From assembly GCA_937921305.1 (NCBI GenBank), contig CAKZSU010000006.1, positions 1,089 to 65,088 of the forward strand: a DNA stretch of 64,000 nucleotides. The letters run 5' to 3'. Position numbers and translations under genes: made by a program. The notes under the pieces are model-generated. The model did not search any database. It saw only the letters and a program-made list of their open reading frames with translations, and was not told the origin of the DNA. Every line of letters begins with the position of its first letter. Position 1 is the stretch's first letter. The stretch comes from an uncultured Patescibacteria group bacterium (GTDB lineage: Bacteria; Patescibacteriota; Microgenomatia; UBA10105; UBA927). Shown here in pieces: positions 4,297-52,257 of this stretch.

Positions 4297-5610
4297 TTAC
4301 TGTTCGTTATACCCAAGAATTGTCCATATGTTTAAGATGAAAATCAATAGAAAAACAAAAATGATGCTTGCCAACTCTATTTTTCTAAACGCCTTATGAT
4401 GAAAAAAATAAGAGATTCCAGTAAGTCCGCACAGAATAAGAAACAATCGATATGCTCCATAAGAAAATCCAAAGAATGGCTCCCATGTGTTTTGAAACAA
4501 TGATAAACCAATCACTGTCGATGAAAAGAATAAAAACAACGATCGATATTTCAACGCATCGATAAATACAACAGCTAACGCAATAGCGAGAAAGGGATAA
4601 AAGGGATATCGATACCAGCCATGACCTGGCTCATTCGGAATGCCGAAGATATAAATCGCGAAGTAAGAAAGCAAACCAAAAATGATAACCGCGTGTCGTT
4701 TCGTGTTTGAAAGAAGGATAAAAAACGCAAACCACCCCGCGTATAACCATCCATCCAAAAATGATCGATCAACAAGCATTGGATTCGTGAATAAAGAAAA
4801 CACACCGTCGAATGTTATATCGTATCGATGCAATTGAAATCGCCAAAGATTGATAAACACTTCCCAGTCCCATAGATACCCCCAAAGAAAGTACAGAGAA
4901 AAAATACCAGCAACCAAACAAATGTATTGAATTACCCTTGCGTACATACGATGATAGAACAGGAGAAAAGATCCGCCTATTGCCGCCGACCACCAAGGAA
5001 CTTTCGCAAGCGTAAGCAAACCAGCGACAATCGCGCTTCCATAAAAATATCGAGTTCGTTTTACCTTTATATATTTAACCATCGCATACAACACCAAAAG
5101 AAATCCTGGAATAAAAAAATTCTCGTTTTGAACAATCCGAGAACCTACAACAACGGTAGGGATAATCGCGTATAAAAATGAGGAAACGAGCCCAATCTCA
5201 TCACCATACATCTCTCGCGCCAGAAGAAATACCATAAGAATACTCGATATCCCCAATATCAATGCCAATCCTCGAATATGAGAAATATCAACAGTGCGCA
5301 TATCTTTTGCCCCCGAGAATAATGCGTAGCTTCCGACAATGAGTCCAAATAATGGCGGATGTTCAAGATATGGTTCGACAAGCCAATATGGCGTTCCCTT
5401 TTCACTCACATAGTGCGTTCGAAGTTTATATTGCGGATGAGGAGACCACGATACCGGCTTTCCTTTTTGAAGAATATTCATACCAAGCCATGTCCATGCA
5501 TATTCATCAAAAGTCGATCCTTCCCGTGGCCATGTGAGATAATTATGTCTTCTCAATAGAAATCCCAAGAAGAGAATACACAGCAAACTAATAATCGTAA
5601 TCTTTTTCAT
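4297..5610 (-). CDS. Polytopic membrane protein, probably a GT-C-fold glycosyltransferase (PMT/ArnT-like, orphan member)
   Basis: More than 10 predicted TM helices. There is a 'TFDEYAWTWLGMNIL' DE-loop straight after TM1, as in GT39/GT83 enzymes. The track ORF (to 5691) is probably over-extended. The internal start MKKITIISLL at about 5610 abuts the upstream stop. Confidence 0.5.
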   Translation of the reverse strand: MKKITIISLLCILFLGFLLRRHNYLTWPREGSTFDEYAWTWLGMNILQKGKPVSWSPHPQYKLRTHYVSEKGTPYWLVEPYLEHPPLFGLIVGSYALFSGAKDMRTVDISHIRGLALILGISSILMVFLLAREMYGDEIGLVSSFLYAIIPTVVVGSRIVQNENFFIPGFLLVLYAMVKYIKVKRTRYFYGSAIVAGLLTLAKVPWWSAAIGGSFLLFYHRMYARVIQYICLVAGIFSLYFLWGYLWDWEVFINLWRFQLHRYDITFDGVFSLFTNPMLVDRSFLDGWLYAGWFAFFILLSNTKRHAVIIFGLLSYFAIYIFGIPNEPGHGWYRYPFYPFLAIALAVVFIDALKYRSLFLFFSSTVIGLSLFQNTWEPFFGFSYGAYRLFLILCGLTGISYFFHHKAFRKIELASIIFVFLLIFILNIWTILGYNEQ

Positions 5611-6725
5611 ATTTGAAAGGATTGAATCGTCTTTTCCAACAATCCAAGACTTTGCTCTGTGACATCTTCCCATCGCAAGGAATGAACCCATCGTTTACCG
5701 TTTTCTTGAAATGTTTTATAGAGTTTTTTATTTCGAAGCAAAAAAACAGCTTGCTTTGCCAATTCCTCTGGAGAATTTTTTCGTATTACAATTCCAGTTT
5801 CTCCGTCCTTTACGACATCTCGAAGACCATGAACATTGTACACAACAGATGGCGTTCCTTGTTTTGCCGCTTCAAGAACAACAAGCCCCCATCCTTCTCG
5901 CATGGAAGCGTGCAATAAGATGTGAGATCTTGCCATAATTAACAACTTTTCATCTTCGGAAACTTTGCCAAAGAATGTTGTCGAATCCTGCAGATGTAAT
6001 TCTTTAATTATATCTTTTACCTTGTAAACATACCTCTCTTCTCCCGAACCGACGATAAATAGTTTCGCTTTGGGTTCTTCTTTTCTGATGTAGGAAAATG
6101 CTCGAATGACATCCTCCACCCCTTTCATTGGGACAATTCGACTCACAAATAAATATGTGGGATTCTTTTCTTTCTCTTCAGATTTTGTTTCATAGTGACG
6201 AAGAATTGGACATGGAATTGCGTGACATAGATTAGAAGATATCCCCACAGAAATTAATTCCTGAACCATTGATGGAGAATCTGTCCAGAACGGAATATTC
6301 CTTTTATTATATAAACGAAGCAAGCGAAGTTCTAACCACTTTCCAAACAAACTTATTGGAAAAGGAAATACCGTATCCCAGATATCGCCGGCGACTTCAT
6401 GAATAAACGCGACAGTGGGACGACGAAACACAAAGAATGAAAAAAACGGCAATCCATGAATTTCATCAACAATAATGTCATACGATGATGCATTGCGAAG
6501 AAGATACATGGCCGCAAAAATACAAAAAGAATACTCCCCTCCTTTTCGGATAACCCGAATTCCATCTCGAATCTCTAATGGACTTGCGGACGGAAAAGAA
6601 GAGGTAAAAAGATCAACTGCATGCCCCTTCGTAATCCATGCTTTTGCGTGTTCTTCTGTGACAATTTCCGCGCCGCCGGATTTTGGATGAGATGTGTCTC
6701 GCCAATTGAGAATCAATATATTCAT
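5607..6725 (-). CDS. Glycosyltransferase family 4 (GT-B, retaining)
   Basis: The C-terminal half has ...HASMREGWGLVVLEAAKQGTPSVV..., which is the E-x7-E motif of GT4/GT1 enzymes. 372 aa. Confidence 0.75.
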   Translation of the reverse strand: MNILILNWRDTSHPKSGGAEIVTEEHAKAWITKGHAVDLFTSSFPSASPLEIRDGIRVIRKGGEYSFCIFAAMYLLRNASSYDIIVDEIHGLPFFSFFVFRRPTVAFIHEVAGDIWDTVFPFPISLFGKWLELRLLRLYNKRNIPFWTDSPSMVQELISVGISSNLCHAIPCPILRHYETKSEEKEKNPTYLFVSRIVPMKGVEDVIRAFSYIRKEEPKAKLFIVGSGEERYVYKVKDIIKELHLQDSTTFFGKVSEDEKLLIMARSHILLHASMREGWGLVVLEAAKQGTPSVVYNVHGLRDVVKDGETGIVIRKNSPEELAKQAVFLLRNKKLYKTFQENGKRWVHSLRWEDVTEQSLGLLEKTIQSFQI

Positions 6726-7528
6726 AAGCGTTTTTTTGAAAACGTAAGATTTGGATCGTTATGCCACCGAAAGATACTTTTGCTATCGTAATACCCAAGT
6801 AATCGCAACTTTAAGAAGATATCGATCGTGTCTCTCAGCATGCGGAGTATAACTCTCCATGTATTCCACCCTGTAATGCTTGAACCAACTTTTGAGAAAT
6901 CAAGTTCTACCGGAGATTCATAAATTCTTGTATATCCCAAATGATTCGTGACAGCGAGTAATTCAATATCAAATGAAAATCCATCATGAGACATTCTTGG
7001 CAAGACGTCCTCAAGAACTTTCCGCTTATAAATTTTTAATCCAACCTGTGTATCTCTTACTTGCAATCCAAATAACACTTTTACCAGTAATTGATATCCA
7101 AATGACAAAATAGTTCTATGCCATGGATATGAAACTTTTGACGCCGGATGACGTTTACTCCCAACGATAATATCCGCGTTATACCACCGCATATGTTCAA
7201 GAAGCATAGAAATGCCAGACTCTCGAATTTCTCCTCCAGCATCGATAAACGCGACGACATCTCCACGCGATCTCGCCATTCCATATCGAACCGCGTAGCC
7301 CTTTCCTTTGTTTTGCTCATATCCATAAATTCTTAAGTGCTTATTTTTCACTTTTTTTGCTTGCTGAAGTGTGTTGTCAACAAATCCATCCACAACAACA
7401 ATCACTTCATATGGAAGGCGAGTCATGTCCAATTCCGCGATAATTGAAAGAAGATTTTTTTTTATCGTCTTTTCTTGGCGAAACACCGGGATAATGACGG
7501 AGAGAAATTCATTGGAATGATTTTCCAT
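6722..7528 (-). CDS. Glycosyltransferase family 2 (DPM1-like / polyprenyl-P-sugar synthase-like)
   Basis: LSVIIPVFRQEKTIKKNL...YEVIVVVDGFVDNT...GKGYAVRYG...AFIDAGGE. The likely start is M21 (MENHSNEF...). Confidence 0.7.
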   Translation of the reverse strand: MENHSNEFLSVIIPVFRQEKTIKKNLLSIIAELDMTRLPYEVIVVVDGFVDNTLQQAKKVKNKHLRIYGYEQNKGKGYAVRYGMARSRGDVVAFIDAGGEIRESGISMLLEHMRWYNADIIVGSKRHPASKVSYPWHRTILSFGYQLLVKVLFGLQVRDTQVGLKIYKRKVLEDVLPRMSHDGFSFDIELLAVTNHLGYTRIYESPVELDFSKVGSSITGWNTWRVILRMLRDTIDIFLKLRLLGYYDSKSIFRWHNDPNLTFSKKRL

Positions 7529-8771
7529 ATCGGTAGTATAGCAAAAGAACAAGGGTAAGAATTCCTGAAACAAACGATATGCTAACAATCACTTCATAGA
7601 GCGACGCATGAAAAAATAAAATGACAACAGAATGCACTATGCTTCCTATAAAAACAAGAAATCCAGCAATCGTTTTATTGATCGCAAGACAAACTGTCAT
7701 TAAATAATTCAGCATGGTAACAAACGCCATAAAGACGCCATATTGACTAATATATTGATTTGCATTCATAAACGCTTCCCCAAATAGGATTCGTATAACA
7801 AACTCTCCGAGAAACATATACATCCCAACAATTGCTGATGAAAGAATCGCAACAGAAAACAAACCAAAGTAAAACAAACTCGCGTATGGAATGCTCTTTT
7901 CCTTTCGTTCAGCAATCATTGGAAAAACAACAATAACGATTGGCGAAGCAGCAAAAAAAATAATTTTGCCAAATATCGTCAACGACGCGTAAATACCAGC
8001 TTCGGTCGCATCAAAAAAATGCTTTACCCAAATCACATCCATATTAAAAAACGCTGTCATGCCGAGCGTTGAAAACAATACGGGCACCGCGAATGAAAAA
8101 ACAGTTGAGAATTTTATCTGTATCCGTTCAGCTGGTTTCGCGAAAAGAAAACGAACGGAAAGCGCGTAAAATACTATGGCAATATATTCAGACATTGCGT
8201 TTCCAAGGATTGTAAGAGGAACGCTGATTGGCGCAAACGCTATACCGGAGAGCAATCGAAGAAATGTCAAAATAGACATATTCAAACTCGACAAAAAAAA
8301 TCGTTGATATCCATTTAATAAAGAAGAAAATACCGCGATCCCAAACGAGCCAACAACAGTAATATATAAATAAATAAAACTATCAAATCGATAGATGTGC
8401 GTTAAGCGCTGAAGAAACGGAAGGAAAAATAAAAATATAGGAAATGCAAGCAATGAAAGACCGATAATCCATCGCATGGTTTTTACAAATAACGAACGAG
8501 CCTCTCCAATATGATCTCTTGCTTTATAGATAGAAAAATACTTTGTTAACACGATTTGAAGAACATTCGCGGGAACGCTAAATAAAAAGAGAAAAGAAAT
8601 AAGTGTGGCAAATTCGCCATATTGTTCCGGACCAAAAATTCTTATAACAACAAGCTGATAAAGATATGCTCCAAAATTTATAATCATTGTTCCAAAAAAC
8701 ATAATGAAACTATTTCGGGCTGCTGGATTACGAAAGAGATGAAGAACGTTTTTGAAGATCATATTAATCAA
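7509..8771 (-). CDS. Wzx-like oligo/polysaccharide flippase (MOP superfamily, polysaccharide biosynthesis protein)
   Basis: 420 aa with about 12 TM helices. The N-terminus has an NxLxxFxxNPAxRNSFIMFFGTMIINFGAYLYQLVV pattern typical of Wzx/PST-family transporters. Confidence 0.6.
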   Translation of the reverse strand: MINMIFKNVLHLFRNPAARNSFIMFFGTMIINFGAYLYQLVVIRIFGPEQYGEFATLISFLFLFSVPANVLQIVLTKYFSIYKARDHIGEARSLFVKTMRWIIGLSLLAFPIFLFFLPFLQRLTHIYRFDSFIYLYITVVGSFGIAVFSSLLNGYQRFFLSSLNMSILTFLRLLSGIAFAPISVPLTILGNAMSEYIAIVFYALSVRFLFAKPAERIQIKFSTVFSFAVPVLFSTLGMTAFFNMDVIWVKHFFDATEAGIYASLTIFGKIIFFAASPIVIVVFPMIAERKEKSIPYASLFYFGLFSVAILSSAIVGMYMFLGEFVIRILFGEAFMNANQYISQYGVFMAFVTMLNYLMTVCLAINKTIAGFLVFIGSIVHSVVILFFHASLYEVIVSISFVSGILTLVLLLYYRYGKSFQ

Positions 8772-9450
8772 TAAATCGATATTTTATTAATGTCCATACG
8801 GCGCTAACCCCATCCCTCCATGTTAACTTTTTTCCTTCTTCAAATTTTCTTCCCAAATATGAAATAGGAACTTCATAAATTTGATATCCTCTTTTCAAGA
8901 GCTTTGCCGTAACTTCTGGCTCAAAATCAAATCGTCTCGCTCGAAGACGAAGATCTTTGATGACTTCTCTTCTAAATAACTTGTATCCTGTTTCCATATC
9001 GGTGATATTCGAGTTGTATATAACATTTGTGAGAAATGTGACAAATTTATTCCCTATCGTGTAAAGAAACATCGTTGAAAGATGAGATCCTAAAAATCTA
9101 GATCCATAAACAACATGAACGCGGGGATTATTGAATGGTTTCAACAATTGTTCATAGTCATCCGGCGTATATTCAAAGTCAGCGTCTTGAATCAACAAAA
9201 TATCTCCTGTCGCTTTTTTAAATCCTCTACAGACAGCGTATCCTTTTCCGTAATTTCTATCCAAAAAAATAATCCTGTGCTTTTTTACATATTTTTGCAA
9301 TACATCTCTCGTGCCATCGGTCGAACCATCATCGATGATGATAAGTTCTTTTCTCCAACCCGGAATATGTTTTTTTGAAACAACCTCGAGCACGAGATCA
9401 ATCATCGATCGTTCGTTATATACCGGAATAATAATCGAAACCTTTTTCAT
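8764..9450 (-). CDS. GT2 polyprenyl-phosphate sugar synthase (dolichyl-phosphate mannosyltransferase-like)
   Basis: 228 aa. VSIIIPVYNERSMI...LIIIDDGSTDGTRDVL...GKGYAVCRGF...LIQDADFEYTPDDY. This is the classic DPM1/GtrB-like architecture. Confidence 0.75.
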   Translation of the reverse strand: MKKVSIIIPVYNERSMIDLVLEVVSKKHIPGWRKELIIIDDGSTDGTRDVLQKYVKKHRIIFLDRNYGKGYAVCRGFKKATGDILLIQDADFEYTPDDYEQLLKPFNNPRVHVVYGSRFLGSHLSTMFLYTIGNKFVTFLTNVIYNSNITDMETGYKLFRREVIKDLRLRARRFDFEPEVTAKLLKRGYQIYEVPISYLGRKFEEGKKLTWRDGVSAVWTLIKYRFID

Positions 9451-10454
9451 ATAACGCTGTTATACACTGTTGTTGTTTCATCGACAACACGTCTCCATGT
9501 AAACTGTTTTACCCATGATAACGCCTTCTTTCCTTCTTTTTCTTTATCTTTTTGAAGAGCGATTCTAATCCCGCGAACGACATCTTCAATACTCCACGGA
9601 TTCACAAGAACTGATGGTCCGGCAATCTCCACAGGACTTGAAACATTTGACACAACACATGGTGTTCCACACGCCATAGATTCAACAATTGGAAATCCAA
9701 ATCCCTCGGCGTAAGAAAGACACAATGTTAGTCTTGCGAAAGAGTATATACTCTTCAATTCATCCGTTTCAACAAAACCCAATGTTATAATTTTTTTCTT
9801 CAACCCTTCTTTGTCGATAATTCTTTCTATTTCTTGTACTTCTTGTATCGATACATTTAAAAATGCTTTGCCAACAAGCACAAGCGGGATATCAATGTTT
9901 CTCATTGCGCGAAGCATGGTGGGAATATTTTTATTCCAATTGACATCACCAACATATAACAAATATTCATCAGGGAGACGATATTTTTTCTTAACCGATC
10001 GATCGTATGTCGGAGTAAATGAAGGATCCGGCGCGATAGGTACAACATGAACATTCGCATCAGGAACATGGACGATCCGAACGATATCGTTCTTTGACGC
10101 AAATGAATCAGTAATAATGGCTGAAACGCGTTGAAGTTTCCATTTTTGTATTCGCCATGCAATCGATCCTCGGATACCCGCAGGAAAGTGTTTTGGGTAT
10201 ACCAATGGAATAAGATCGTGAACCGTAACCACAACTGGTTTGTTTTTTATAAACGGCATCGTGAAAAAAAACGGATCGAAAAACGGATAGTGAATACAAT
10301 CAATATCTGGAAGATCGCGGAATGAAAGAAATTGATAATAGATATTGTTTTTATCAAACAAAGAAAACGCTTGAAGAAGAAGACGAAGATATGTCCCAGA
10401 TCCTCTCGCGGCATGAGCGTTACGAAGCGGCAAGATATTTATTCCGACGCGCAT
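9447..10454 (-). CDS. Glycosyltransferase family 4
   Basis: ...YAEGFGFPIVESMACGTPCVVS... E-x7-E motif. The likely start is MRVGINILPL, a typical GT4 start. Confidence 0.75.
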   Translation of the reverse strand: MRVGINILPLRNAHAARGSGTYLRLLLQAFSLFDKNNIYYQFLSFRDLPDIDCIHYPFFDPFFFTMPFIKNKPVVVTVHDLIPLVYPKHFPAGIRGSIAWRIQKWKLQRVSAIITDSFASKNDIVRIVHVPDANVHVVPIAPDPSFTPTYDRSVKKKYRLPDEYLLYVGDVNWNKNIPTMLRAMRNIDIPLVLVGKAFLNVSIQEVQEIERIIDKEGLKKKIITLGFVETDELKSIYSFARLTLCLSYAEGFGFPIVESMACGTPCVVSNVSSPVEIAGPSVLVNPWSIEDVVRGIRIALQKDKEKEGKKALSWVKQFTWRRVVDETTTVYNSVI

Positions 10455-12045
10455 AGAAATAACGAAAAACGACAAAATTAATCATCAACGACAATGTAAT
10501 CAGAGACAGCGCATTTGCGCTCCTTCTTGTTTGCGTTTCTTCAAATATAGCTTCTACATTATACACGCCCCGTTCTGGAAGATTAATATCAATGACTCCG
10601 CGAGAATAATCGACAGGAATTTCCCGACCATTTGCTATTATTCGCCATCCCGGATAGTATGTTCTATGAATACGAAGGGATGTTTCTTGATTTGTTTCAA
10701 CAGAAAAAGACACAGATATGGATGTTTCTTGAACATTACGTATCTTCCCTCCTCCGCTGACAACGCTTGTATATCGCTCGCGAATCCACGGCGTCCAAAT
10801 AGTTGAAAAACTATTTCCAAGAGACGATGTTCCATCGGTGAATGAAGGATTATTCAGATAATACGAATCTTCTCTTGGTTCATAGGCAACAGGTCTCATA
10901 TAAGAAAAAGAAAGGACTATTGCTATTCCTCCAAAGAGGATAAGAGAGGTAATCCGACGAACAAAAAACGCGCCAAGAAATGGAATCGTTATCAGCAAAA
11001 TTGACAACAAACGCCATGGATATTGAATAAATTGAAGAAAGGAGATAATTCTCCAAATAAAATCTGACATTGGCAAAAGAAAGAATATTCCAATAAAGGA
11101 AAAAACAAAAAAAACTAGTCGAATCGGTGAATGTTGTTTCCATAAAAAAATAAAAGAAACTAGCAAAATAACCAATGGAACAATACCAATCTGCTGAGAA
11201 ATTTCTCCAGCAATAATACCTGGTTGAGAAAAATTTGTTCCCCATGATGGAAAGAGCAATTGCGTAATATGAGGAAAGTGATCGCTATAGGTGACGGTAT
11301 TCAACCCAATCACATACTGTCTTTCAAACAAAGCGGGAATCCAAAAATATGCACTTAGACCTATTCCTCCAATCAAAGAAATGAACGCATTTCGATAAAA
11401 CAACTCCGTAAATATAGTCAAAAATGGAATCATAATCATCGCCATGATATTGTGACTTACAATAATCAAAGCGATGCATAAAGAAAAAAGAATTACCCTT
11501 CTCCATACGATACTGGCTAATGCGCACCATGTCCACGCAATCGCCCACAACTCGCCAATAGATCCTCGAACATACACATCAACATAGAGATATGGAACAG
11601 AAAAAAACAACACAACCCCAAAGACTGATGAAATAACAGAATAATATCTTCTTAAGAAGATATAACAACCAATCATCGCAACAAAAAGACTCATGCCGAG
11701 ACTATACTGAAATGATTGAACAAGAGGAAATCCTAGCAGAAAAAATAATGAACCGACATAATTAGGAAATGGATAATGAAAAATAAATAAAGGAAATCCA
11801 TAACCGCTGTTTAATCCCGGAGCCCATCGAGGAAATATATGTCCCTCTCTCAACATTTTGGAAAATTCATAGATTCGAATTAAATGATATTCACCGTCAT
11901 GCGTTGGAATAAAACGATTCCCAAATAACGGAAATGCGGCGAACAACCAAAGAAAAAGGAGTATGCCAATCCCTACCGCTTCTTTTTTGTAACGATGTAT
12001 CGTCTCCATAATATTAAAGACATAAGCATTACAAGAGGAAGCCAC
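10420..12045 (-). CDS. Family-B GT-C-like membrane protein (uncharacterised HDG/PRW/GYG family with a YfhO-like C-terminal domain)
   Basis: THDGEYHLIRIYEFSKMLREGHIFPRWAPGLNSGYGFPLFIFHYPFPNY straight after TM1, followed by about 11 TM helices. The C-terminus has ...YYPGWRIIANGREIPVDYSRGVIDINLPERGVYNVEAIFEET. Confidence 0.55.
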   Translation of the reverse strand: MASSCNAYVFNIMETIHRYKKEAVGIGILLFLWLFAAFPLFGNRFIPTHDGEYHLIRIYEFSKMLREGHIFPRWAPGLNSGYGFPLFIFHYPFPNYVGSLFFLLGFPLVQSFQYSLGMSLFVAMIGCYIFLRRYYSVISSVFGVVLFFSVPYLYVDVYVRGSIGELWAIAWTWCALASIVWRRVILFSLCIALIIVSHNIMAMIMIPFLTIFTELFYRNAFISLIGGIGLSAYFWIPALFERQYVIGLNTVTYSDHFPHITQLLFPSWGTNFSQPGIIAGEISQQIGIVPLVILLVSFIFLWKQHSPIRLVFFVFSFIGIFFLLPMSDFIWRIISFLQFIQYPWRLLSILLITIPFLGAFFVRRITSLILFGGIAIVLSFSYMRPVAYEPREDSYYLNNPSFTDGTSSLGNSFSTIWTPWIRERYTSVVSGGGKIRNVQETSISVSFSVETNQETSLRIHRTYYPGWRIIANGREIPVDYSRGVIDINLPERGVYNVEAIFEETQTRRSANALSLITLSLMINFVVFRYFYARRNKYLAAS

Positions 12046-25864: not shown

Positions 25865-25870
25865 AAAACT

Positions 25871-33989: not shown

Positions 33990-34141
33990 TCAAAGGTTTT
34001 AATTATTTTTCTTTTAAGAAGATATTTTTCAGAAGATTTTCTTAGCATAATATGCGTTACCCCCTGCTCCTTAAGATATTGAACATCGTTTATCATTTCT
34101 CTTCTTTTCATTTCTTCCTTTTTTGCTTCTTCGCTATTTAA

Positions 34142-39871: not shown

Positions 39872-39881
39872 ACGAGCTTTG

Positions 39882-43905: not shown

Positions 43906-45559
43906 AGGAATACACTAATAATAACACGCTCAAAACGCTTATTATATTTCCTATAAATCGAACAGGTGTATCGATAAATCTCATTTCAATTGTGCTAAAT
44001 CCTTCTGGAATGCGAACAATAGCTCTGCTGTTATCAAGACGAATATATTGCTCTTTGCCATTGACCCAATATCGCCATCCAGGGAAATGCGCGTGCTGAA
44101 GAATTATGTCATGTTGTTTTTGACTCATGATTTCAAATTTTTTATATGTTTCTTTATTGATAGCTTGCTTAAATTGATATACCGTACTCTCCGGAATAGG
44201 AAGTTTTATAATTTCCTCGGCGGATTTCGGTTTTGGGATATCTGGCGGCAAATACTCATCGGAAATTTTTGATGCTCTATATCGAAGATCTTCCTGTGTT
44301 TCAAAACTCGCGGGTGATCGATCATACAGATATTGAGGAACGAAAAATTTTTTGTTTACGAAGATATTTCCAATCATAATCATACAACTTATAAGAAAAA
44401 AACCATATCGATATCGATATCGATGAGGAATCGACAAAACCAAAGAAATTGTTAATAACGATATCCCGAATGCCGTATAAGCAAGAAACCGCCATGGATA
44501 TTGAACATAAGAAAATCCAGGAATTAAGATCCATAAAAATTCAGAAAGACTTGTCATAAAAAAAATCGAAAGCAAAACAACTCCCCAGCCGAATACCCCA
44601 ACAAACACCAACTGATTCTTTCGCTTCCACGAATAAAGCAAAGCAAATCCGCTACTCACCATAATAAAAAACGCCAACTTGCCAAGCATAAATGACAGTC
44701 CATCTTCGCATCCAGAGACAGATCCTCCGTACCCCCATGGGGAATACCAAAATTGACGAAGACATACAAAGTGATCGACAACGTTCGCAGTCGGTCCAAT
44801 TTGCTCTGAAACAGAAATAAATCTCATTTCTACGATCGCTGGAAGCCAGAAAAACGCGGAGAGACCTAATCCGAATAATAAACCAATCTTCAAAATGCCA
44901 AAAGGAAGAACCGATTTCTTTTTTATAACTACAACAATAGCAAAAAATACTAAGAAAAAGAGAAAAAACACTACTGTAGTAAATCCAAGAATCGTGTGAG
45001 ACAAGACAACTCCCGCTACGCCGATTGCTCCAAGATATATCCCTATTCTATATCGTCGCTCAATCAGTGTCGCGTATACCGAACCAAACAAAAACGGAAA
45101 GAACACAAGCGTCCATAATTCTCCAATCGCGCCGCGAACATATAATTGCGTCGCATGATACGGCGCATAAACATACACAATAGCAGCAACTAACGCGATC
45201 ACAATTCCAAAAAAACTGGAATAGATCAACACCATTAGTATGGCTGGAAGCACCATACCGATTACCATCATTATTTTTGTCGCAGCAAGGCCAGAGAAGC
45301 CTAATGCGTAGAAAAAACCGCCGACATAATACGGAAGCGGTCCATAAAAATTAAACAGTGGATATCCATAACCATATCCCAAATCAGAAATCCATCGAAC
45401 AGGAAATTGACCATTGAGAAGAGCTCTTCCCATAGAAACAACTCGCGCAACCTGCGTATCATCATGCATAGGGAAAAATCCATCAGAAAGAATAGGTTGA
45501 ACAACTGGCAAGCATAACACAAAAGACAATAAAACAACAAAAAAATATTTAACGATCAT
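43883..45559 (-). CDS. Family-B GT-C-like membrane protein
   Basis: MHDDTQVARVVSMGRALLNGQFPVRWISDLGYGYGYPLFNFYGPLPYY. The track ORF (to 45862) is over-extended into the upstream gene. An internal start MIVKYFFVVLL at about 45559 lies 5-8 bp from the upstream stop. Confidence 0.55.
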   Translation of the reverse strand: MIVKYFFVVLLSFVLCLPVVQPILSDGFFPMHDDTQVARVVSMGRALLNGQFPVRWISDLGYGYGYPLFNFYGPLPYYVGGFFYALGFSGLAATKIMMVIGMVLPAILMVLIYSSFFGIVIALVAAIVYVYAPYHATQLYVRGAIGELWTLVFFPFLFGSVYATLIERRYRIGIYLGAIGVAGVVLSHTILGFTTVVFFLFFLVFFAIVVVIKKKSVLPFGILKIGLLFGLGLSAFFWLPAIVEMRFISVSEQIGPTANVVDHFVCLRQFWYSPWGYGGSVSGCEDGLSFMLGKLAFFIMVSSGFALLYSWKRKNQLVFVGVFGWGVVLLSIFFMTSLSEFLWILIPGFSYVQYPWRFLAYTAFGISLLTISLVLSIPHRYRYRYGFFLISCMIMIGNIFVNKKFFVPQYLYDRSPASFETQEDLRYRASKISDEYLPPDIPKPKSAEEIIKLPIPESTVYQFKQAINKETYKKFEIMSQKQHDIILQHAHFPGWRYWVNGKEQYIRLDNSRAIVRIPEGFSTIEMRFIDTPVRFIGNIISVLSVLLLVYSYGKKTVS

Positions 45560-47078
45560 ATCGTTTCGGTATGAAAAATTTATAACCAAGCAATCCGCCG
45601 TAACACAGCATAAAACAGAGAGACGCGCTATTCGCGACAAATCGCGGAATCGTCTCTCGAAACTCGGCAAATATTTCGTGTTCTCCTTTGAGAACAAAAA
45701 AACGAATAAGACCATTTGGATTATCATAGGAGATCTTTTGCGGCAAACCATTGACCAACACACCCCATCCCGGATAATAAATCGAATTAATCTGAAGCAC
45801 GCTATCTTCTTCCGCAATAACGCGAGCTTTGATCGTTTGAGTAGTGGCAACATCAAACACAATCTTCCCTCGTCCTTGCTGAAAAATCATCCGTTTATAG
45901 GATCGCTCTGAGGGAATTTCTCGCACCCATCGCGGCATATATTCTCCTGAAACAGTTGTAGTTGACTCGTTTGTCGCGTAAAATCCTTCTGGATGATTCA
46001 TATACTCAATAAGGCGAAAAAACGAAAGCGCATGAGCGTAAAAAGAAATAATAACCAAAACAATATATAACATCCGAAACCTGTCTCTCAATACATCAAC
46101 TACCAACGCGATGAAATAAGCTGACAAAAAAATTGAAAGAGAAAACATTCGAAATGGAAATTGAAACAATCGAGCAAATGATTCAATTGACCAGACCCAT
46201 TGGGAAAAAGATGTTAATAAAAACAATAGAAAAATATTACTAAAAAAATAAAAAGATATGTACGATTTTTTTAGGAAAAAGATCAATAGCGATGATAATA
46301 GACCAATCGTTGGGAATAGATACGAGAATCGATTATCAAGAAAAAAACTTTGAGGATTTGAAATTATTTTTGAATCAAATATAACGTATCGTTTCTCATA
46401 TAGCGCAGGAAACCAAAAAAATGTCGCCATACCAATACCTAAACAAAATAACAAAATTCCCTTAATATTTCTTCGCAAAGCAAGAAGCAAAAGAAAAAAA
46501 CAACAGAATATCAATGCCACAGAATTATGACTAATAACAAGGAAAAACACCGCAGGAGCGATCAGCATATACCGTTGTCTTTCAATCGCGTACAACACTA
46601 TCGCCGCGAAAGAAAACGCAAGCACCTCGCCGACAGATCCCCGCTCGTAAAGATCAAATAAAAGATAAGGAGAAACAAGATAACTAACGCTGCCAATAAA
46701 CGCTGAAAATGGAGAAACAAATACCCGAAGCCAAAGATAAACAAAGATTCCAGAAATAATAACTGATCCCCCCATAATGATTTTCACAGCGTCAAGAAAA
46801 GAAAAACCAATACCATGAAGCATCGATCCGATGTACAAATATCCTGGATATAAAAAATTTGAAACAGGATATCCATAGCTATTGTTCAACCTTCCTAAAA
46901 ACCGAACAGGAAATTGTCCTTCTCGAAGACTTTGATAAAACGCCGAAAGACGAATAATCATCCAATCGCCATCGTGTGTCACGGGAAATCCCGAATGAAA
47001 CAATGGAATAAGAGAAGCACATGCGGCAAATATGACCGCAACAAGGAACACGATGTGTGTACGATTATGAATATTCAT
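45549..47078 (-). CDS. Family-B GT-C-like membrane protein
   Basis: THDGDWMIIRLSAFYQSLREGQFPVRFLGRLNNSYGYPVSNFLYPGYLY. The C-terminus has YYPGWGVLVNGLPQKISYDNPNGLIRFFVLKGEHEIFAEFRET. Confidence 0.55.
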   Translation of the reverse strand: MNIHNRTHIVFLVAVIFAACASLIPLFHSGFPVTHDGDWMIIRLSAFYQSLREGQFPVRFLGRLNNSYGYPVSNFLYPGYLYIGSMLHGIGFSFLDAVKIIMGGSVIISGIFVYLWLRVFVSPFSAFIGSVSYLVSPYLLFDLYERGSVGEVLAFSFAAIVLYAIERQRYMLIAPAVFFLVISHNSVALIFCCFFLLLLALRRNIKGILLFCLGIGMATFFWFPALYEKRYVIFDSKIISNPQSFFLDNRFSYLFPTIGLLSSLLIFFLKKSYISFYFFSNIFLLFLLTSFSQWVWSIESFARLFQFPFRMFSLSIFLSAYFIALVVDVLRDRFRMLYIVLVIISFYAHALSFFRLIEYMNHPEGFYATNESTTTVSGEYMPRWVREIPSERSYKRMIFQQGRGKIVFDVATTQTIKARVIAEEDSVLQINSIYYPGWGVLVNGLPQKISYDNPNGLIRFFVLKGEHEIFAEFRETIPRFVANSASLCFMLCYGGLLGYKFFIPKRYDR

Positions 47079-48580
47079 GGGAGGAAATGATGGACAATTG
47101 GTTGAGTAACGCGAAATAATCGAAGTTTCACTGTTGGATTTGTTCCCTTCTGATATTCGCCAATCAATTCAAGCGGCCAATCAGGGGGAGCGCCTTGTGT
47201 TTGATTAAGAATAAGATATGTTGGTCTCTTCAACGCAGATTGAACAATCTCTTGAGGCAATACTTCAGGTAATGGCCATATCCCCTTAATCATAACATTT
47301 GGATTGTTTGCCAAATATATTTCTAACGCGTAAGGAAATAATCCAAATGTTCCCTCTGTATACACTGCGATTGCTCCCTTCTTTGCTTCGCCTCTAAGAA
47401 ATTCAAGGGATTCCTTTACGCCGTATCCAGACGGCCAATCATCGATAAACTGTCCTCTGTCCGCGTACGGGATGGGAGCATACATTGGATTTGTAATAAT
47501 CACATATGAAGCCCACACCGAAGGTAAAAAAACAATCAATGAGAAAAAATTTTTATACCAACGAGATCGAAGAACAGAAAAGATATGATAAAACGAATAC
47601 GCGGCAAGAGGAAGAAGCGGCATAGACATAAATAAAATAAATCGAGGATATAACACTTTTCCAAAATATGCCAATCCAATCAATGGAAGAAAATAATATA
47701 AAAATAATAAAATCATACTTTTCTTTCGAAATGCGAGAGAGAAGAGCGCAAGAAACACAATAGGAATCGTCAAATATCCAATCAACCAGTCAAGCAATCC
47801 TCGAAGGTTTCCAAGAAAAAAAGGATAGAGGAAATAAAAATTCCTAAACGGATGAACAAACACAAAATCCTTCTGCGCGATCATATGAAAAAACGGAGAA
47901 AGACGAAGAATACCATATATAAGTTGAGAAATCACAAGTGATACAAACGCCAACCCGACCCAATGAAGCAATCGCTGTTTCCATCGCTTATGATGGAAAT
48001 CAAAAAGAATCAATATGATAGGCAATAGATACAATGCTATAAATCCAGATGTTTTATTCAACATTCCCGCTCCCAACGACATACCCAACAATAACGCGAC
48101 ATCCAATCGACGATACCGAACCAAAAGAATAGAAAAATAGAGACTCCATATCGCCAACGCTGCGGATAACGAATCATATAACGCAAGACGGTCATACGTA
48201 AGCGAAAAAGGAGAAAGTATATACATGAAAGCGACAATAAGAATGATTTTCTTTGAGCGAAAAAGTTCATAAGAAAGCATTACAAGTCCAACCAATGTTA
48301 ATGCTCCTGCAGATACGGAGACTATCCTACCCGCCAAAAGAGGATCGGCAAATAAACGCAAAGAAACCATCATTATCCACGGGAATAATGGCTGTTTTCC
48401 GTCAGTAAGAGAAATGAAGCGCCAATTCGGATCTTGTCCACCTATTTGCGCCCATCGAATGTAGATTGCCTCGTCGGTAAAAATCGGAAGCGCAGTAAGA
48501 TTAATACTTCTTGTCAGAAAATAGAGAAATAATATCCCAAATCCAATCAAAATCATTTTCCATGTCATTAAAAACTTCAT
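47075..48580 (-). CDS. GT-C-fold glycosyltransferase, PMT_2/GT39-like
   Basis: 501 aa. ...ALPIFTDEAIYIRWAQIG... is a DE-loop after TM1, followed by about 11 TM helices and a C-terminal soluble domain. Confidence 0.5.
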   Translation of the reverse strand: MKFLMTWKMILIGFGILFLYFLTRSINLTALPIFTDEAIYIRWAQIGGQDPNWRFISLTDGKQPLFPWIMMVSLRLFADPLLAGRIVSVSAGALTLVGLVMLSYELFRSKKIILIVAFMYILSPFSLTYDRLALYDSLSAALAIWSLYFSILLVRYRRLDVALLLGMSLGAGMLNKTSGFIALYLLPIILILFDFHHKRWKQRLLHWVGLAFVSLVISQLIYGILRLSPFFHMIAQKDFVFVHPFRNFYFLYPFFLGNLRGLLDWLIGYLTIPIVFLALFSLAFRKKSMILLFLYYFLPLIGLAYFGKVLYPRFILFMSMPLLPLAAYSFYHIFSVLRSRWYKNFFSLIVFLPSVWASYVIITNPMYAPIPYADRGQFIDDWPSGYGVKESLEFLRGEAKKGAIAVYTEGTFGLFPYALEIYLANNPNVMIKGIWPLPEVLPQEIVQSALKRPTYLILNQTQGAPPDWPLELIGEYQKGTNPTVKLRLFRVTQPIVHHFLP

Positions 48581-48737: not shown

Positions 48738-49907
48738 CTATGGAAAAAATCTTCTACCATTATTAGCGTAGCTCAAAAACAATACAAACATAACGGAACA
48801 CACTATCAAAGCGACAAATGCATCAAAGAATCGTTGAGGATATATTGCCTGATCACCGATGCCAAAGTATAAAAAAGGAATATACTTAAAAAGAAGAATA
48901 AATCCGACGATACCGATCGTCCAAAATAAACGAGACAGAGGAAGTAACGAAGCAAACGAAAGCATCCATAACCAATACCACGGCAAAAATTCTCTTCTCG
49001 TCAATACCAACAACGACGCAAGAGACATCAATGCAACTGCTTTCTTCGATGACCAACCGATAATAAATAAAGGGAGAAGAATAATAGTCATAAACTTTGT
49101 CGCCACAGACAATGAATAAAAGAGCAACGATGATAAAACATGTCGCTTTAACCACAAAAAATATGAAAGCAACGCAAACATCATCATGACAATGTCATTG
49201 TGTCCACTTACTAATACTTCAATAATCACCAACGGATGAAATGCAAACGAAGCCATCCCGATCAATCGATAAGTATTTTTCGTGATTGTCAGTATCTTGC
49301 CAATCATCCAAATCAAACCGATATATGAACCAATCTGAATAATTTTCATCGTCCACAACAAAAAAAGCATTTTCTCAAAACTCAACAGGTACTGAACTAT
49401 GCTTAAAAAAATCCAGAACGGCGTATACGGACTGTTCACATGCGTCCACCGCATAAATGAAAGCATCGCGTCAATACCTCGAAACGCCAACGGTTTTACT
49501 TCAAATGGGTTAACCCCATACACAAGAATCATCCGTGGATAAAAGATATAATTGAAAATATCGTACGAAAACGCGGCAGAATAAGAACATAAAAGAATAC
49601 CAGCCATGGCGAATACTATACACCACAGATGACGTTCAAAAATCATTCGCTTCCACAACGCAAATAACACACTTCCATACAATCCCATCATGGAAAGTAA
49701 TACCGAGATATATATCCCTGTCGCCAACGGACGTTGATAAAATCCGACATATTGAAATTCTTTCTGAATCGTTTGAACAATCGTTTCTTCAGAAAGCGTT
49801 AAACTCAAATCAATTTGCGTGTAACTGAAAAAAAATAACGCAAGAGCGTTTATAATCGAGAACAATAAAAGAAATAAGAAGACAAATCGTTGACGACGCG
49901 CATTCAT
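48738..49907 (-). CDS. Polytopic membrane protein ('GHND' family, paralog of 11973-13067)
   Basis: 389 aa. It shares ...VSGHNDIVMMMFALLSYFLW... and the overall TM pattern with 11973-13067. Confidence 0.4.
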   Translation of the reverse strand: MNARRQRFVFLFLLLFSIINALALFFFSYTQIDLSLTLSEETIVQTIQKEFQYVGFYQRPLATGIYISVLLSMMGLYGSVLFALWKRMIFERHLWCIVFAMAGILLCSYSAAFSYDIFNYIFYPRMILVYGVNPFEVKPLAFRGIDAMLSFMRWTHVNSPYTPFWIFLSIVQYLLSFEKMLFLLWTMKIIQIGSYIGLIWMIGKILTITKNTYRLIGMASFAFHPLVIIEVLVSGHNDIVMMMFALLSYFLWLKRHVLSSLLFYSLSVATKFMTIILLPLFIIGWSSKKAVALMSLASLLVLTRREFLPWYWLWMLSFASLLPLSRLFWTIGIVGFILLFKYIPFLYFGIGDQAIYPQRFFDAFVALIVCSVMFVLFLSYANNGRRFFP

Positions 49908-49909: not shown

Positions 49910-50662
49910 TTATTTATACAACCCTCGCCATGCGTTAAGCCGAATTGCAATAATATCCATAATCCCCTGAAGAGAGTCTTTGATGGGATTGACTCGCCTT
50001 GTCTCAACATAATGCCATTCTACCGGAACTTCCTTTATCTTGTATCCTTTTCTCTTTGCAACAAACAGAATTTCAATATCAAAACCAGCCGTAACCATCG
50101 CGCCGGAGACTTCGTGCCCTTTCCCATATCGCTTTAATGAACGGAATACATCATACGCGACTTCGCGACGAAACGCCTTAAATCCACACTGCGTATCAAT
50201 AATCCCGTGCAATCCAAGAATAATGCTTCGCAACGCCATAAAGCCTCGAGCCATAATCTTTCGTGACAATGGCGCTCCATGACGCTCACCACTTCTTGAG
50301 CCGATAACAACATCGTACCCTTTACCGAAAAATGGAAGCAATTTCCGAATCTCATGAAGCGGCGTTGCCTGATCAAGATCGGAAAATAATACGATATTCC
50401 CTTTTGCCGCAAGCATACCAGTAATAACTGTTGCCGCTTTTCCTTGATGAGGATTAAATATCGCCTGAAATCCTTTGTTTTGATCAACAAAATCGGCAAG
50501 CAACCGTTTTGTCATATCTGTCGATCCATCGTCAACAATAATCACTTCCCATGAAAAGAAAACATGCTGAAGATATCGAACAACCTTATCCAACGTACCT
50601 AATCGTATATTTGTTTCTTCATTGTACGCTGGAATAACAATAGAGATATCACATGGTTTCAT
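49910..50662 (-). CDS. GT2 polyprenyl-phosphate sugar synthase (DPM1-like)
   Basis: ISIVIPAYNEETNI...VIIVDDGSTDMTKRLL...GKAATVITGM...VLFSDLDQATP. Confidence 0.75.
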   Translation of the reverse strand: MKPCDISIVIPAYNEETNIRLGTLDKVVRYLQHVFFSWEVIIVDDGSTDMTKRLLADFVDQNKGFQAIFNPHQGKAATVITGMLAAKGNIVLFSDLDQATPLHEIRKLLPFFGKGYDVVIGSRSGERHGAPLSRKIMARGFMALRSIILGLHGIIDTQCGFKAFRREVAYDVFRSLKRYGKGHEVSGAMVTAGFDIEILFVAKRKGYKIKEVPVEWHYVETRRVNPIKDSLQGIMDIIAIRLNAWRGLYK

Positions 50663-52257
50663 TCTTCTCCTTTGTAATGAACGAGCTTAAATAATTTTAC
50701 TGGAAAGACATCCTTTTCTTCGACAATTTCCGCTCTTCCAAACCCAGCAACCTCCCAGCTAGCATGCCCTAATGGCTGACATGATGGATTTTCACAGATA
50801 ACAATAAGCTGATCGGTCACAGTTGTTCGTTCTGGATCTACGGACGGTTGTTGAATAACAATCGGCGATCTTCCCCATATTTCAAAGAAATATCGATATG
50901 CATGATCGGAGTTTGTCGCCGTGATTAATGCAAAATTAAATGGTTTTCCTTCCGAGAGATCCAACGCCGCCTTCGCGATTCGTTTTGTTTGCTCCAATTG
51001 ATTATTCGGAGGGTACATAAATGGTCTTCCCTGCCAATTATAGTAAAACAGTCCGCCCCATACGAACAAGCCAATCGCAATTCCCGCTTTTGTTTTCATA
51101 AGTTGCCAAAGAACAATGCCCACCGCAATAAACGGAAACGCAAAAAAAATGCCGAAGTAATAATCATAAATACTTCGCTGATAAAATCCAAACGACAAAA
51201 TAGACCATAAAAACCATCCAGATAATAACATTGCTCCCAACCATTGCTTACGCGTCAGTATATTTTGCGAAGATTTCCGAATAAAACGAATACTCATATA
51301 GACCACAACACCAATTGAAATATAGAGCGTCGTACGTATCAATATGACTAAAAGATTGATATACCAATCAGAATATCCATTCCACACTTCATATTGAGGC
51401 ATGCGAAACAACAACCGTCCATAAGAACGAAACGTAACATCATGAACAATCTCGATGAATTTTCCTGGAACAAACACTGTTTCATTTCCTCCCAGAAAAA
51501 AATTGATAAGCGCTGTTGTATTGGGAAACGAATGGCGAAATTCAAACGCCACAAACGGGGAAAGCATAAGAAAAAATCCACAACACCACACCGCAATATG
51601 CTTAAAAAGCGACCTTATTGAAGAAACAATAAGAATCAATAAAGAAAACGCGATGAGTATTGAATATAAATAATGAAATTGGATACCCATCCCAGACACC
51701 ACCCCAATAAAAAAAACAAGGATTGTCTTCTTCTGAACAATGAATCTCCATAAAAGGTAGAGAAGAAGCAAGGAAAAAAAAGGCACAAGGTTAGGATTCC
51801 ACGATGATCGAGCATACGCGATCACCAAGGGAGAAACAGCATATAAACTCGCTCCAACAAGCCCGACAACAGGATGAAACATTGTGCTTCCCACATGAAA
51901 GACTAAATAAATTGTCGCAATTCCGAATAACGCGACCATAATCGCGGGACCAACTGGATCAAGATTCCACAACCAAAGAAACGGCGCCATGAAGTAGTAA
52001 TACAATGGTCCAAGAAAGAATCCGCCGACCGACGCTGTTGGCCCAAGAAAGACCATGTCTCTATCAACGATCATCCGTTTCACAATTAATACATCTCTTC
52101 CTTCATCGCCTAAAAACGTTAAATACTCATGAATACGATGTAATCGAAGATATGCGCCAAGGAGCATAATTATTGTTATGCAAGAAATCAGAAGATGCTT
52201 TAAAGAACTACAATTCATGAGTGTAGTATACCTTACACCAATCTCTTTTTTCTCCAA
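50659..52257 (-). CDS. GT-C-like polytopic membrane protein with a DE motif (ArnT/PMT-like, orphan)
   Basis: 532 aa. ...HEYLTFLGDEGRDVLIVKRMIVDRDMVFLGPTASVGGFFLGPLYYY... after TM1, then about 11 TM helices. Confidence 0.5.
   Translation of the reverse strand: MEKKEIGVRYTTLMNCSSLKHLLISCITIIMLLGAYLRLHRIHEYLTFLGDEGRDVLIVKRMIVDRDMVFLGPTASVGGFFLGPLYYYFMAPFLWLWNLDPVGPAIMVALFGIATIYLVFHVGSTMFHPVVGLVGASLYAVSPLVIAYARSSWNPNLVPFFSLLLLYLLWRFIVQKKTILVFFIGVVSGMGIQFHYLYSILIAFSLLILIVSSIRSLFKHIAVWCCGFFLMLSPFVAFEFRHSFPNTTALINFFLGGNETVFVPGKFIEIVHDVTFRSYGRLLFRMPQYEVWNGYSDWYINLLVILIRTTLYISIGVVVYMSIRFIRKSSQNILTRKQWLGAMLLSGWFLWSILSFGFYQRSIYDYYFGIFFAFPFIAVGIVLWQLMKTKAGIAIGLFVWGGLFYYNWQGRPFMYPPNNQLEQTKRIAKAALDLSEGKPFNFALITATNSDHAYRYFFEIWGRSPIVIQQPSVDPERTTVTDQLIVICENPSCQPLGHASWEVAGFGRAEIVEEKDVFPVKLFKLVHYKGEE

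Follow-up and report, generated by a model that had tools for sequence, protein, structure and literature searches.

An array of 21 glycosyltransferase genes of the GT-C superfamily was found between positions 4297 and 52257 of a 64,000-nucleotide stretch of DNA (here called the window) from an uncultured Patescibacteria group bacterium of the Microgenomatia lineage. GT-C enzymes are membrane glycosyltransferases that act outside the cytoplasm, and in well-studied bacteria only a handful of their genes is present, scattered over the genome. In the window, GT-C genes span 34,794 of the 47,961 nt between these positions (72.5%), and a minimal genome of about 1 Mb or less thus gives roughly three quarters of a 48-kb locus to them. 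The underlying protein families are recognisable by standard tools, and the individual enzymes extend known families, apart from one family that Pfam lacks; what is new is a conserved array of about 20 GT-C genes in one minimal-genome locus. The array is undescribed in the searchable literature, where no paper was found that links the Candidate Phyla Radiation (CPR), Patescibacteria, or Microgenomates with GT-C, YfhO, or PMT proteins. The closest remark, made in a paper on a complete Microgenomates genome (PMC7143001), is of "29 genes of glycosyl transferases".

Open reading frames (ORFs) of at least 150 aa were listed, and 51 of those in the window were handled as genes (numbered as in Table 1). 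Between 4297 and 52257 there are 37 such ORFs, and the ORF list together with a Kyte-Doolittle scan gave 23 polytopic membrane proteins, namely the 21 GT-C proteins and two Wzx/MOP-type flippases. The GT-C set consists of five PMT_2/ArnT-like proteins (family A), six PTPS_related/YfhO-like proteins (family B), three YfhO proteins, three PMT_2 singletons, one GT87-like protein, two MptA_B/ALG3-like proteins, and g27. By this crude scan, 8 to 19 hydrophobic segments were counted in 20 of the 21 proteins, and only five in g19. An earlier note, made from the sequence alone, had counted about 22 large polytopic genes and had called at least 17 of them GT-C-like; the first figure was close, and the second slightly understated the set, as four polytopic proteins that it left unclassified (g12, g19, g27, and g38) also proved to be GT-C. 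Its family counts (5 A, 6 B, and 3 YfhO) were reproduced exactly by all-versus-all BLASTP and Pfam, its three further proteins with a DE loop (g05, g37, and g40) all match PMT_2 above the gathering score, and Pfam matches also bore out its two Wzx flippases (g08 and g33) and its interleaved GT2 and GT4 genes.

Thirteen of the proteins scored above the Pfam gathering cutoff for GT-C-type families (PMT_2, PMT, GT87, PTPS_related, YfhO, or STT3). PMT_2, PMT, or both, matched above the gathering score in g05, g17, g18, g24, g37, and g40; PF02366 (PMT) exceeded its own cutoff in g18, g24, and g37, where the DE motif is present. Two further proteins, g16 and g22, fell at most 1.5 bits short of the PMT_2 cutoff. 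PTPS_related matched g15, g23, and g35, with g15 additionally matching YfhO and STT3, and the YfhO model (PF09586, cutoff 28.5 bits) scored 75.2 bits in g21, 68.2 in g29, 35.5 in g26, and 30.6 in g15. No match was found in the Pfam copy scanned for g11, g12, g20, g27, g36, and g38, and these six proteins were linked to GT-C through paralogy, profile comparison, or fold. In all-versus-all BLASTP, family A (g16, g17, g18, g22, and g24) showed 25–36% mutual identity over the full length, and g11, g20, and g36 were full-length paralogs, at 25–33% identity, of g15, g23, and g35, which together make up family B. The same comparison defined the YfhO trio (g21, g26, and g29) and paired g12 with g38 (32% identity), both of which carry precomputed matches to PF26314 (MptA_B_family), a model that was unmatched in the Pfam copy scanned here. 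The GT-C proteins thereby fall into three multi-gene families, one paralog pair, and four singletons, making eight groups by sequence. Profile-profile comparison with hhalign joined family B to the YfhO trio (probability 99%, E = 2e-18).

Conserved acidic residues were found in the loop after the first helix. In family A, a D-E pair directly after the first transmembrane (TM) helix is invariant in the five paralogs, and in family B a T-H-D-G motif, with invariant D, stands at the same place. The singletons g05, g37, and g40 carry FDE, TDE, and GDE, respectively, after TM1. The g12 family has acidic residues D25, D107, and D222, and in g27 the conserved candidate is D138 or D233. Among solved structures, only ArnT (5EZM) was reached by sequence, weakly, by the family A profile (E = 0.006 over 170 residues); in PDB sequence searches, nothing beyond chance matches was obtained for family B, the YfhO trio, g37, or g40. 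Profile-profile comparison revealed no relationship between g27 and family A, so that a fold search was needed. In AlphaFold2 (AF2) models, both g27 and g12 take the form of all-helical bundles, with three-dimensional likeness to solved GT-C enzymes. The best matches of the g27 model were ALG12, AglB, STT3B, and PglB, the g12 model resembles ALG3, ALG6, and PimE, and the models match PimE, AftA, and AftB. On its predicted structure, g27 represents a GT-C-fold family without a Pfam model; with 1,492 clusters at 50% identity, of which 663 match at E ≤ 1e-30, this family is a large one. NCBIfam gave no match for g12, g38, g27, and g13, among others. By sequence, fold, or both, the 21 proteins belong to the GT-C superfamily, and the identity of the genes as GT-C is secure. 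The possibility that they are transporters taken for glycosyltransferases was ruled out by Pfam and fold searches for all but the two MOP flippases.

The C-terminus of g27 was found to be shortened. The gene ends at a TAA codon (34142–34144, minus strand), which in a homolog of 84% identity (P0002, 621 aa) is a Ser codon, TCA having changed to TAA. Downstream of the stop (33990–34144), similarity stays in frame over about 50 codons before the frame changes, and the product loses the C-terminal 55–75 residues usual in its family (about 645 aa). The premature stop is probably real rather than a read error, because the same 568-aa product is recorded from three contigs.

Metagenomic origin of the sequence, and the six polytopic proteins without a match in the Pfam copy searched, could raise the suspicion that the array is an artefact, either a chimeric or collapsed assembly or a misreading of transporters. 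This explanation is extremely improbable. The window lies on a 565,362-bp contig (ENA ERZ6864144, also at NCBI), and two independent assemblies, a 179,651-bp Logan contig and an ENA contig of 6 kb, show identical gene order. GC content is uniform along the array (0.33–0.42), no DNA repeat in the window exceeds 71 nt or 77% matching, and paralogs within the window are only 25–36% identical. Synteny is seen in dozens of metagenome-assembled genomes (MAGs) from different studies, and the Pfam-less proteins are tied to GT-C as described above. Collapse of paralogs from several genomes, which the earlier note had named as a danger, is ruled out by the lack of long repeats, by the agreement of independent assemblies, and by the synteny in other MAGs, where the copies have colinear orthologs of their own.

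Relatives of the array were collected by using the family A motif to scan a single genome from each GTDB species, which gave at least 597 encoding stretches, and the best 80 loci were used; their GT-C genes were identified by searching ORFs with hidden Markov models (HMMs) built from the window families. All of the best 80 loci come from Microgenomates-type CPR MAGs (Woesebacteria, Gottesmanbacteria, Levybacteria, Roizmanbacteria, Curtissbacteria, and Chisholmbacteria), which, with the length of the contig, bears out the earlier guess of a small-genome, CPR-like organism. Several GT-C genes were found in every related locus. Of these loci, all chosen for having a family A gene, 52 are 20 kb or longer; they have 4–12 GT-C ORFs per 21 kb (median 8.5), covering a median of 64% of bases. 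The dense array is therefore lineage-wide in Microgenomates. The earlier note had considered the density far outside the usual range; this holds against model bacteria such as Bacillus subtilis and Lactococcus lactis, with three GT-A/GT-C pairs each (PMC8035078, Table 1), but within the lineage such density is the norm. Many of the locus records (L005, L006, L008, L010, L012, and others) are titled "uncultured Gammaproteobacteria bacterium" (TPA_asm). These loci are colinear with the array at 40–56% identity, and the titles look like taxonomic mislabels.

Gene order and catalytic residues are conserved along with gene content. The order "A Y B s40 s19 A A A s40 B M B" was found in five separate MAGs. 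In a Woesebacteria MAG (L002), colinear orthologs are present for each of the core paralogs g11–g20, with identities of 53–63%, compared to 31–36% to the best paralog in the window, indicating that the duplications are old and that the copies have been retained. A second sub-block (g31 and g34–g38) is colinear in a Levyibacteriota contig (L049). In the related loci, the first-loop D and E of family A are kept in 267 and 268 of 272 sequences, respectively, the D of family B in 82 of 82, the D of YfhO proteins (D66) in 57 of 59, and D107 and D222 of the MptA_B-like proteins in 29 of 29 each. This almost universal retention of acidic residues argues that the copies are active enzymes and are not decaying.

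The conservation bears directly on an explanation that takes up the "combinatorial" idea of the earlier note, and in which the array is a variable serotype-conversion toolbox, with optional side-chain decorations whose strain-specific sets are directed against phages or adapted to hosts. Gtr-type and GT136 three-component systems do act in this manner in enterobacteria (PMC11127046), the order and number of GT-C genes vary among the more distant loci, within the range of 4–12 per 21 kb, and the premature stop of g27 is what would be expected of a dispensable member. However, the core has one-to-one colinear orthologs in a different candidate lineage, the gene order given above recurs in five MAGs, and catalytic residues are kept almost everywhere; the window holds no recent duplicates, no long repeats, and no mobile-element genes among its Pfam matches. 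Conserved order and residues, and the lack of recent duplicates, indicate long-term purifying selection on fixed functions, and such ancient, orthologous paralogs argue for fixed, probably specialised steps over strain-variable combinatorics. The toolbox explanation is accordingly improbable.

Cytoplasmic glycosyltransferases are interleaved with the GT-C genes throughout the array. GT4 enzymes are encoded by g06, g10, and g28, and GT2 enzymes by g07, g09, g14, g25, g30, g31, g32, g34, g39, and g41, with two more (g03 and g04) at the left edge. About five of the GT2 proteins are synthase-like, one of them fused to GtrA, and about ten are other GT2 or GT4 enzymes. The proteins g09, g34, g39, g41, and, more weakly, g07 align over nearly their full length to NCBIfam models for AglJ, Dol-P-hexose transferase, PgfS, ArnC-like, and PpgS proteins. 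Scores in NCBIfam were sub-threshold throughout, so that no specific sugar can be assigned. From its domains, g41 is predicted to be a polyprenyl-phosphate sugar synthase with a flippase-like module, and its GtrA_DPMS_TM domain, together with the two MOP Polysacc_synt proteins, makes up the flippase candidates. Wzx- or MATE-type flippases have been proposed to flip polyprenyl-phosphate sugars in GacK-type and GT136 systems (PMC8035078 and PMC11127046).

This composition resembles the multi-component transmembrane glycosylation systems (GtrA/B/*, CsbB-GtcA-YfhO, GacI/K/L, and Citrobacter GT136), in which a GT2 charger, a GtrA or MOP/MATE flippase, and an outside-acting YfhO- or PMT_2-type GT-C work together (PMC8035078 and PMC11127046). 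The known systems have one GT2 for each GT-C and about 1–3 pairs per genome, whereas the array has about five candidate synthases, 21 GT-C enzymes, and one GtrA module; by analogy, it may work like a greatly enlarged system of this type. A second parallel is the assembly of arabinogalactan and of lipomannan and lipoarabinomannan (LM/LAM) in mycobacteria and corynebacteria (EmbA/B/C, AftA-D, MptA/B/C, and PimE), where many linkage-specific GT-C enzymes use few polyprenyl-phosphate donors to build a wall glycan outside the membrane. Links to this pathway are the MptA_B membership of g12 and g38, the GT87 match of g19, and the resemblance of the models to PimE, AftA, and AftB. Mycobacterial GT-C genes are dispersed over a 4.4-Mb genome, whereas the array places 21 in 48 kb of a 565-kb contig, and the sequence similarity is remote; no genes of the decaprenyl-phosphate-arabinose (DPA) pathway (DprE1/E2 and PRPP transferase) were present among the Pfam matches of the window. 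The eukaryotic and archaeal GT-C enzymes of the endoplasmic reticulum and of N-glycan synthesis (ALG3/6/9/12 and STT3/AglB) are the best structural matches of g27 and g12, with identities of only 8–16%, and the eukaryotic ALG enzymes form a series of lumenal GT-Cs that extends one glycan stepwise, as proposed here for the array.

The array most probably uses lipid-linked monosaccharides to elongate, branch, and decorate a wall-associated envelope glycan, and possibly surface proteins too, on the external side of the cell membrane. In the proposed mechanism, the nucleotide sugars would be supplied by flanking Rml, UDP-glucose dehydrogenase, SDR, and 2-epimerase genes, and about five small GT2 enzymes (g07, g09, g34, g39, and g41) would load their monosaccharides onto polyprenyl phosphate at the cytoplasmic face. 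The lipid-linked sugars would then be flipped by the GtrA module of g41, by the two MOP-family flippases, or by both, while the remaining GT2 and GT4 enzymes would make a lipid-linked primer or backbone that is flipped as well. Outside, each of the 21 GT-Cs would add one sugar, in one linkage, at one acceptor site, and their joint output would be a complex wall-associated glycan, elongated, branched, and decorated, and possibly decorated Ser/Thr-rich surface proteins. With about five candidate synthases for 21 GT-Cs, most of these enzymes would have to share donors and to differ in acceptor or linkage. The use of polyprenyl-phosphate sugars at the outer face is suggested by the co-location of the GT-C genes with GT2 synthase-like genes, a GtrA module, and MOP flippases, in analogy with the systems above. 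A wall-associated polysaccharide is the first choice for the acceptor, because YfhO, PTPS_related, MptA_B, and GT87 types dominate among the enzymes.

Several points weigh against this proposal. Donor, acceptor, and linkage are all read from family membership, and every GT2 "synthase" score lies far under the NCBIfam equivalog cutoff, which leaves it uncertain which of these proteins make lipid-linked monosaccharides. There is only one GtrA-like module (g41). Neither phosphoglycosyltransferase (PGT) families (PF00953 and PF02397) nor a Wzy polymerase or O-antigen ligase family appeared among the Pfam matches of the window and its 10-kb flanks, so that the backbone pathway is incomplete as viewed; as a Wzx/Wzy-dependent locus, the array has Wzx twice and neither PGT nor Wzy. 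Structure models cover 2 of the 21 proteins, the TM segments come from the Kyte-Doolittle scan, with the catalytic loop presumed to face outside, and the density in related loci is conditional on the choice of loci with a family A gene.

The alternative to a mainly polysaccharide product is that the array serves mainly protein O-glycosylation, in which PMT_2/PMT-like enzymes (family A, g05, g37, and g40) act on Ser/Thr-rich proteins that are secreted, sortase-anchored, or pilins, and the other GT-Cs extend the product. Nine proteins match PMT_2 or PMT, which are protein O-mannosyltransferase families, with a DE motif, and a candidate acceptor is encoded near the array. To the right of the sugar genes lie a CAP-domain protein, a sortase, and an S/T/P-rich fn3 surface protein. 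The sortase gene (59554–60123, minus strand) adjoins that of the surface protein (60095–61270, minus strand), which has a signal peptide, a long Ser/Thr/Pro-rich linker, an fn3 domain, and a sorting-signal-like tail ("LGATG", a hydrophobic segment, and KFSR). It is plausible, from these features, that the protein is a sortase substrate and a candidate O-glycosylation acceptor for PMT_2-type enzymes. Against this stands the breadth of PMT_2, which also covers ArnT, GtlB, GacL, and CsdD-type enzymes acting on lipids or wall polymers (PMC8035078, Table 2). The family A profile reaches only ArnT among solved structures, and 12 of the 21 GT-Cs belong to polymer or glycolipid families (YfhO, PTPS_related, MptA_B, and GT87) or to the g27 family. 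Protein O-glycosylation is thus unlikely as the main function, and PMT_2-type O-glycosylation is a serious partial alternative.

Resemblance to individual enzymes likewise has limits on the acceptor side. Family A shares with ArnT (GT83) and bacterial PMT (GT39) the DE after TM1, the PMT_2/PMT matches, the profile match to 5EZM, and the overall layout, with the last predicted TM ending at about residues 380–420 and followed by a soluble C-terminal domain of about 130–185 residues. However, the E-value of that match is only 0.006, and the lipid A acceptor of ArnT is unlikely in a CPR bacterium with sortase-anchored proteins. Eukaryotic PMTs differ in their MIR domain, which had no Pfam match in the PMT-type proteins of the array. 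No STT3 C-terminal domain or WWDYG motif was identified, and there is no sign of oligosaccharyltransferase function. The enzymes are not filed as ArnT, eukaryote-type PMT, or oligosaccharyltransferase, as the acceptor-side hallmarks that could be looked for were not found.

These results suggest that much of the surface sugar coat of Microgenomates is assembled at the external side of the cell membrane. The arrangement is common to Woesebacteria-, Gottesmanbacteria-, Levybacteria-, Roizmanbacteria-, and Curtissbacteria-type genomes, and it suggests that this large radiation, as yet uncultured, has a major envelope glycan or glycoprotein coat that is still uncharacterised. The cell surface of the CPR-type radiation is thought to mediate an episymbiotic lifestyle. 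A bolder proposal, offered tentatively and with the balance tilting somewhat against it, is that the dominant envelope layer of Microgenomates is built almost wholly outside the membrane, by a conserved line of more than 20 GT-Cs, from few lipid-linked monosaccharides. This layer would be a branched heteropolysaccharide, a glycoprotein coat, or both, an independently evolved counterpart of arabinogalactan and LAM that takes about 5–14% of a minimal genome and uses at least one GT-C family absent from Pfam (g27). If this is true, the layer could be central to host attachment or phage resistance of these ultra-small cells. For structure-function work, the array also offers a large number of naturally diversified GT-C sequences whose catalytic loops are conserved, including the family without a Pfam model and the YfhO and PTPS_related families, which have no sequence-detectable solved relative.

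Table 1. Genes of the array and adjoining sugar genes, in window coordinates, with the matches on which each assignment is based.
Gene	Position	Strand	Assignment and basis
left edge	350..4284	-	UDP-GlcNAc 2-epimerase (Epimerase_2 8.6e-42), one gene without assigned function, two GT2 (2e-27, 1e-25)
g05	4297..5610	-	GT-C, PMT_2 singleton, 437 aa; E = 3.1e-14, 53.9 bits (cutoff 26.1); TFDEYAW after TM1; longest ORF reaches 5691, called gene start 5610
g06	5607..6725	-	Cytoplasmic GT4; Glycos_transf_1 E = 9e-43, Glyco_transf_4
g07	6722..7588	-	GT2, Glycos_transf_2 E = 2e-26; weakly polyprenyl-P-synthase-like (PpgS E = 5e-13, far under cutoff)
g08	7509..8771	-	MOP/Wzx-type flippase; Polysacc_synt E = 2.9e-11, above cutoff
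g09	8764..9450	-	GT2, polyprenyl-phosphate-hexose-synthase-like; Glycos_transf_2 E = 7e-35; AglJ E = 1.3e-33, ArnC-like 1e-18, Dol-P hexose transferase 8e-17 (NCBIfam; near full length, under equivalog cutoffs)
g10	9447..10475	-	Cytoplasmic GT4; Glycos_transf_1 E = 2.4e-27
g11	10420..12045	-	GT-C family B; no own Pfam match; 26–31% full-length identity to the other five; THDG invariant
g12	11973..13067	-	GT-C, GT-C_B type, MptA_B family; ALG3/ALG6/PimE-like
g14	13573..14325	-	Cytoplasmic GT2; Glycos_transf_2 E = 2.4e-22
g15	14322..15998	-	GT-C family B; PTPS_related 1.3e-8, YfhO 1.5e-7, STT3 7.5e-7, all above cutoffs
g16	15913..17559	-	GT-C family A; PMT_2 25.8 bits (cutoff 26.1); 36% full-length identity to g17; DE
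g17	17565..19193	-	GT-C family A; PMT_2 E = 1.6e-9
g18	19190..20845	-	GT-C family A; PMT 1.3e-8, PMT_2 6.7e-8
g19	20793..22031	-	GT-C singleton; GT87 E = 2.7e-7 (31 bits, cutoff 25), PMT_2 27.3 bits (cutoff 26.1)
g20	22065..23666	+	GT-C family B; no Pfam match; 33% full-length identity to g15 and g23
g21	23651..25864	+	GT-C, YfhO; E = 5e-21
g22	25871..27550	+	GT-C family A; PMT_2 24.7 bits, just sub-cutoff; 25–30% full-length identity to family A
g23	27525..29153	+	GT-C family B; PTPS_related E = 4.4e-9
g24	29129..30838	+	GT-C family A; PMT E = 2.2e-11, PMT_2 6.7e-7
g25	30821..31738	-	Cytoplasmic GT2; Glycos_transf_2 6.6e-25
g26	31728..33989	-	GT-C, YfhO; E = 5e-9; 30% full-length identity to g21 and g29
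g27	34142..35848	-	Predicted GT-C fold, no Pfam model; C-terminus shortened by TAA
g28	35852..36877	-	Cytoplasmic GT4; Glycos_transf_1 5e-23
g29	36858..39161	-	GT-C, YfhO; E = 6.6e-19
g30	39131..39931	-	Cytoplasmic GT2; Glycos_transf_2 / Glyco_tranf_2_3, E 1.8e-17 to 2.5e-19 (g30–g32)
g31	39882..40811	-	Cytoplasmic GT2; as g30
g32	40808..41719	-	Cytoplasmic GT2; as g30
g33	41712..43169	-	MOP/Wzx-type flippase; Polysacc_synt_3 E = 8e-49
g34	43162..43905	-	GT2, polyprenyl-phosphate-synthase-like; Glycos_transf_2 3.4e-24; PgfS 9e-15, Dol-P hexose transferase 4e-12 (sub-cutoff)
g35	43883..45559	-	GT-C family B; PTPS_related 8e-7
g36	45549..47078	-	GT-C family B; no Pfam match; 25–30% full-length identity to family B
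g37	47075..48580	-	GT-C, PMT_2/PMT singleton; PMT_2 4.7e-12, PMT 1.2e-6; FTDEAIY after TM1
g38	48738..49907	-	GT-C, GT-C_B type, g12 paralog (32%); precomputed PF26314
g39	49910..50662	-	GT2, polyprenyl-phosphate-synthase-like; Glycos_transf_2 9.6e-25; PgfS 9e-22, ArnC-like 2e-16, Dol-P hexose transferase 5.5e-16 (sub-cutoff)
g40	50659..52257	-	GT-C, PMT_2 singleton; E = 3.7e-8; LGDEGRD after TM1
g41	52233..53357	-	GT2 + GtrA/DPMS TM fusion; Glycos_transf_2 2e-24; GtrA_DPMS_TM 8.5e-20, 71.5 bits (cutoff 26.1)
	53391..58299	-	Nucleotide-sugar genes: SDR 4,6-dehydratase/UXS-like, UDP-glucose dehydrogenase, RmlD, RmlB-like, RmlA-like; Pfam GDP_Man_Dehyd/Epimerase, UDPG_MGDP_dh (three domains), RmlD_sub_bind, NTP_transferase

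Nearly all ORFs of the window lie on the minus strand, the exception being a five-gene block on the plus strand (22065–30838). This GT-C block (B, YfhO, A, B, A) diverges from g19 across a gap of 33 nt, and the divergent g20/g19 junction is also present in the Woesebacteria locus L002, ortholog opposite ortholog. Between 20000 and 36000, promoter-like sites were fewer than expected by chance (48, versus 62.5 in shuffled sequence), and terminator-like sites were about equal in number (13 versus 9.3). A tRNA scan found none. The longest ORF of g35 extends to 45862; its first 101 residues are unaligned with the family, and it would overlap g36 by 314 nt, so the true start is probably the ATG at 45559.

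A small gene, g13 (13064–13576, minus strand), lies between a GT2 gene and an MptA_B-like GT-C gene. Its 170-aa product has a single N-terminal TM and was placed in no family by either Pfam or NCBIfam. The gene is kept at the same position in relatives, with 43% identity in L009, and may encode an accessory subunit.

Glycan genes continue past both ends of the window, with a GT2, an acetyltransferase, an SDR, and DegT aminotransferases on one side and a pyruvyl transferase and a further GT2 on the other, and the glycan island therefore extends over at least 78 kb. Among these genes, on the source contig but outside the window, three additional proteins with 12–13 TMs (524, 540, and 743 aa) are encoded (L084 1722–3296 and 3293–4915; L082 16952–19183). 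They matched neither Pfam nor the HMMs of the window families, and may be further GT-C or polymerase-like proteins. At the left end of the window, the GC content of positions 1–4000 is 0.28–0.33, compared to 0.34–0.42 elsewhere in the window; this stretch, which holds the UDP-GlcNAc 2-epimerase, a 262-aa protein of no assigned function, and a GT2, may have been acquired more recently. At the right edge (61462–63967, minus strand), a 437-aa secreted protein without a family, and a 399-aa protein with a precomputed match to Apiosidase (PF13204), could be glycan-trimming or -remodelling enzymes that adjoin the biosynthetic island.

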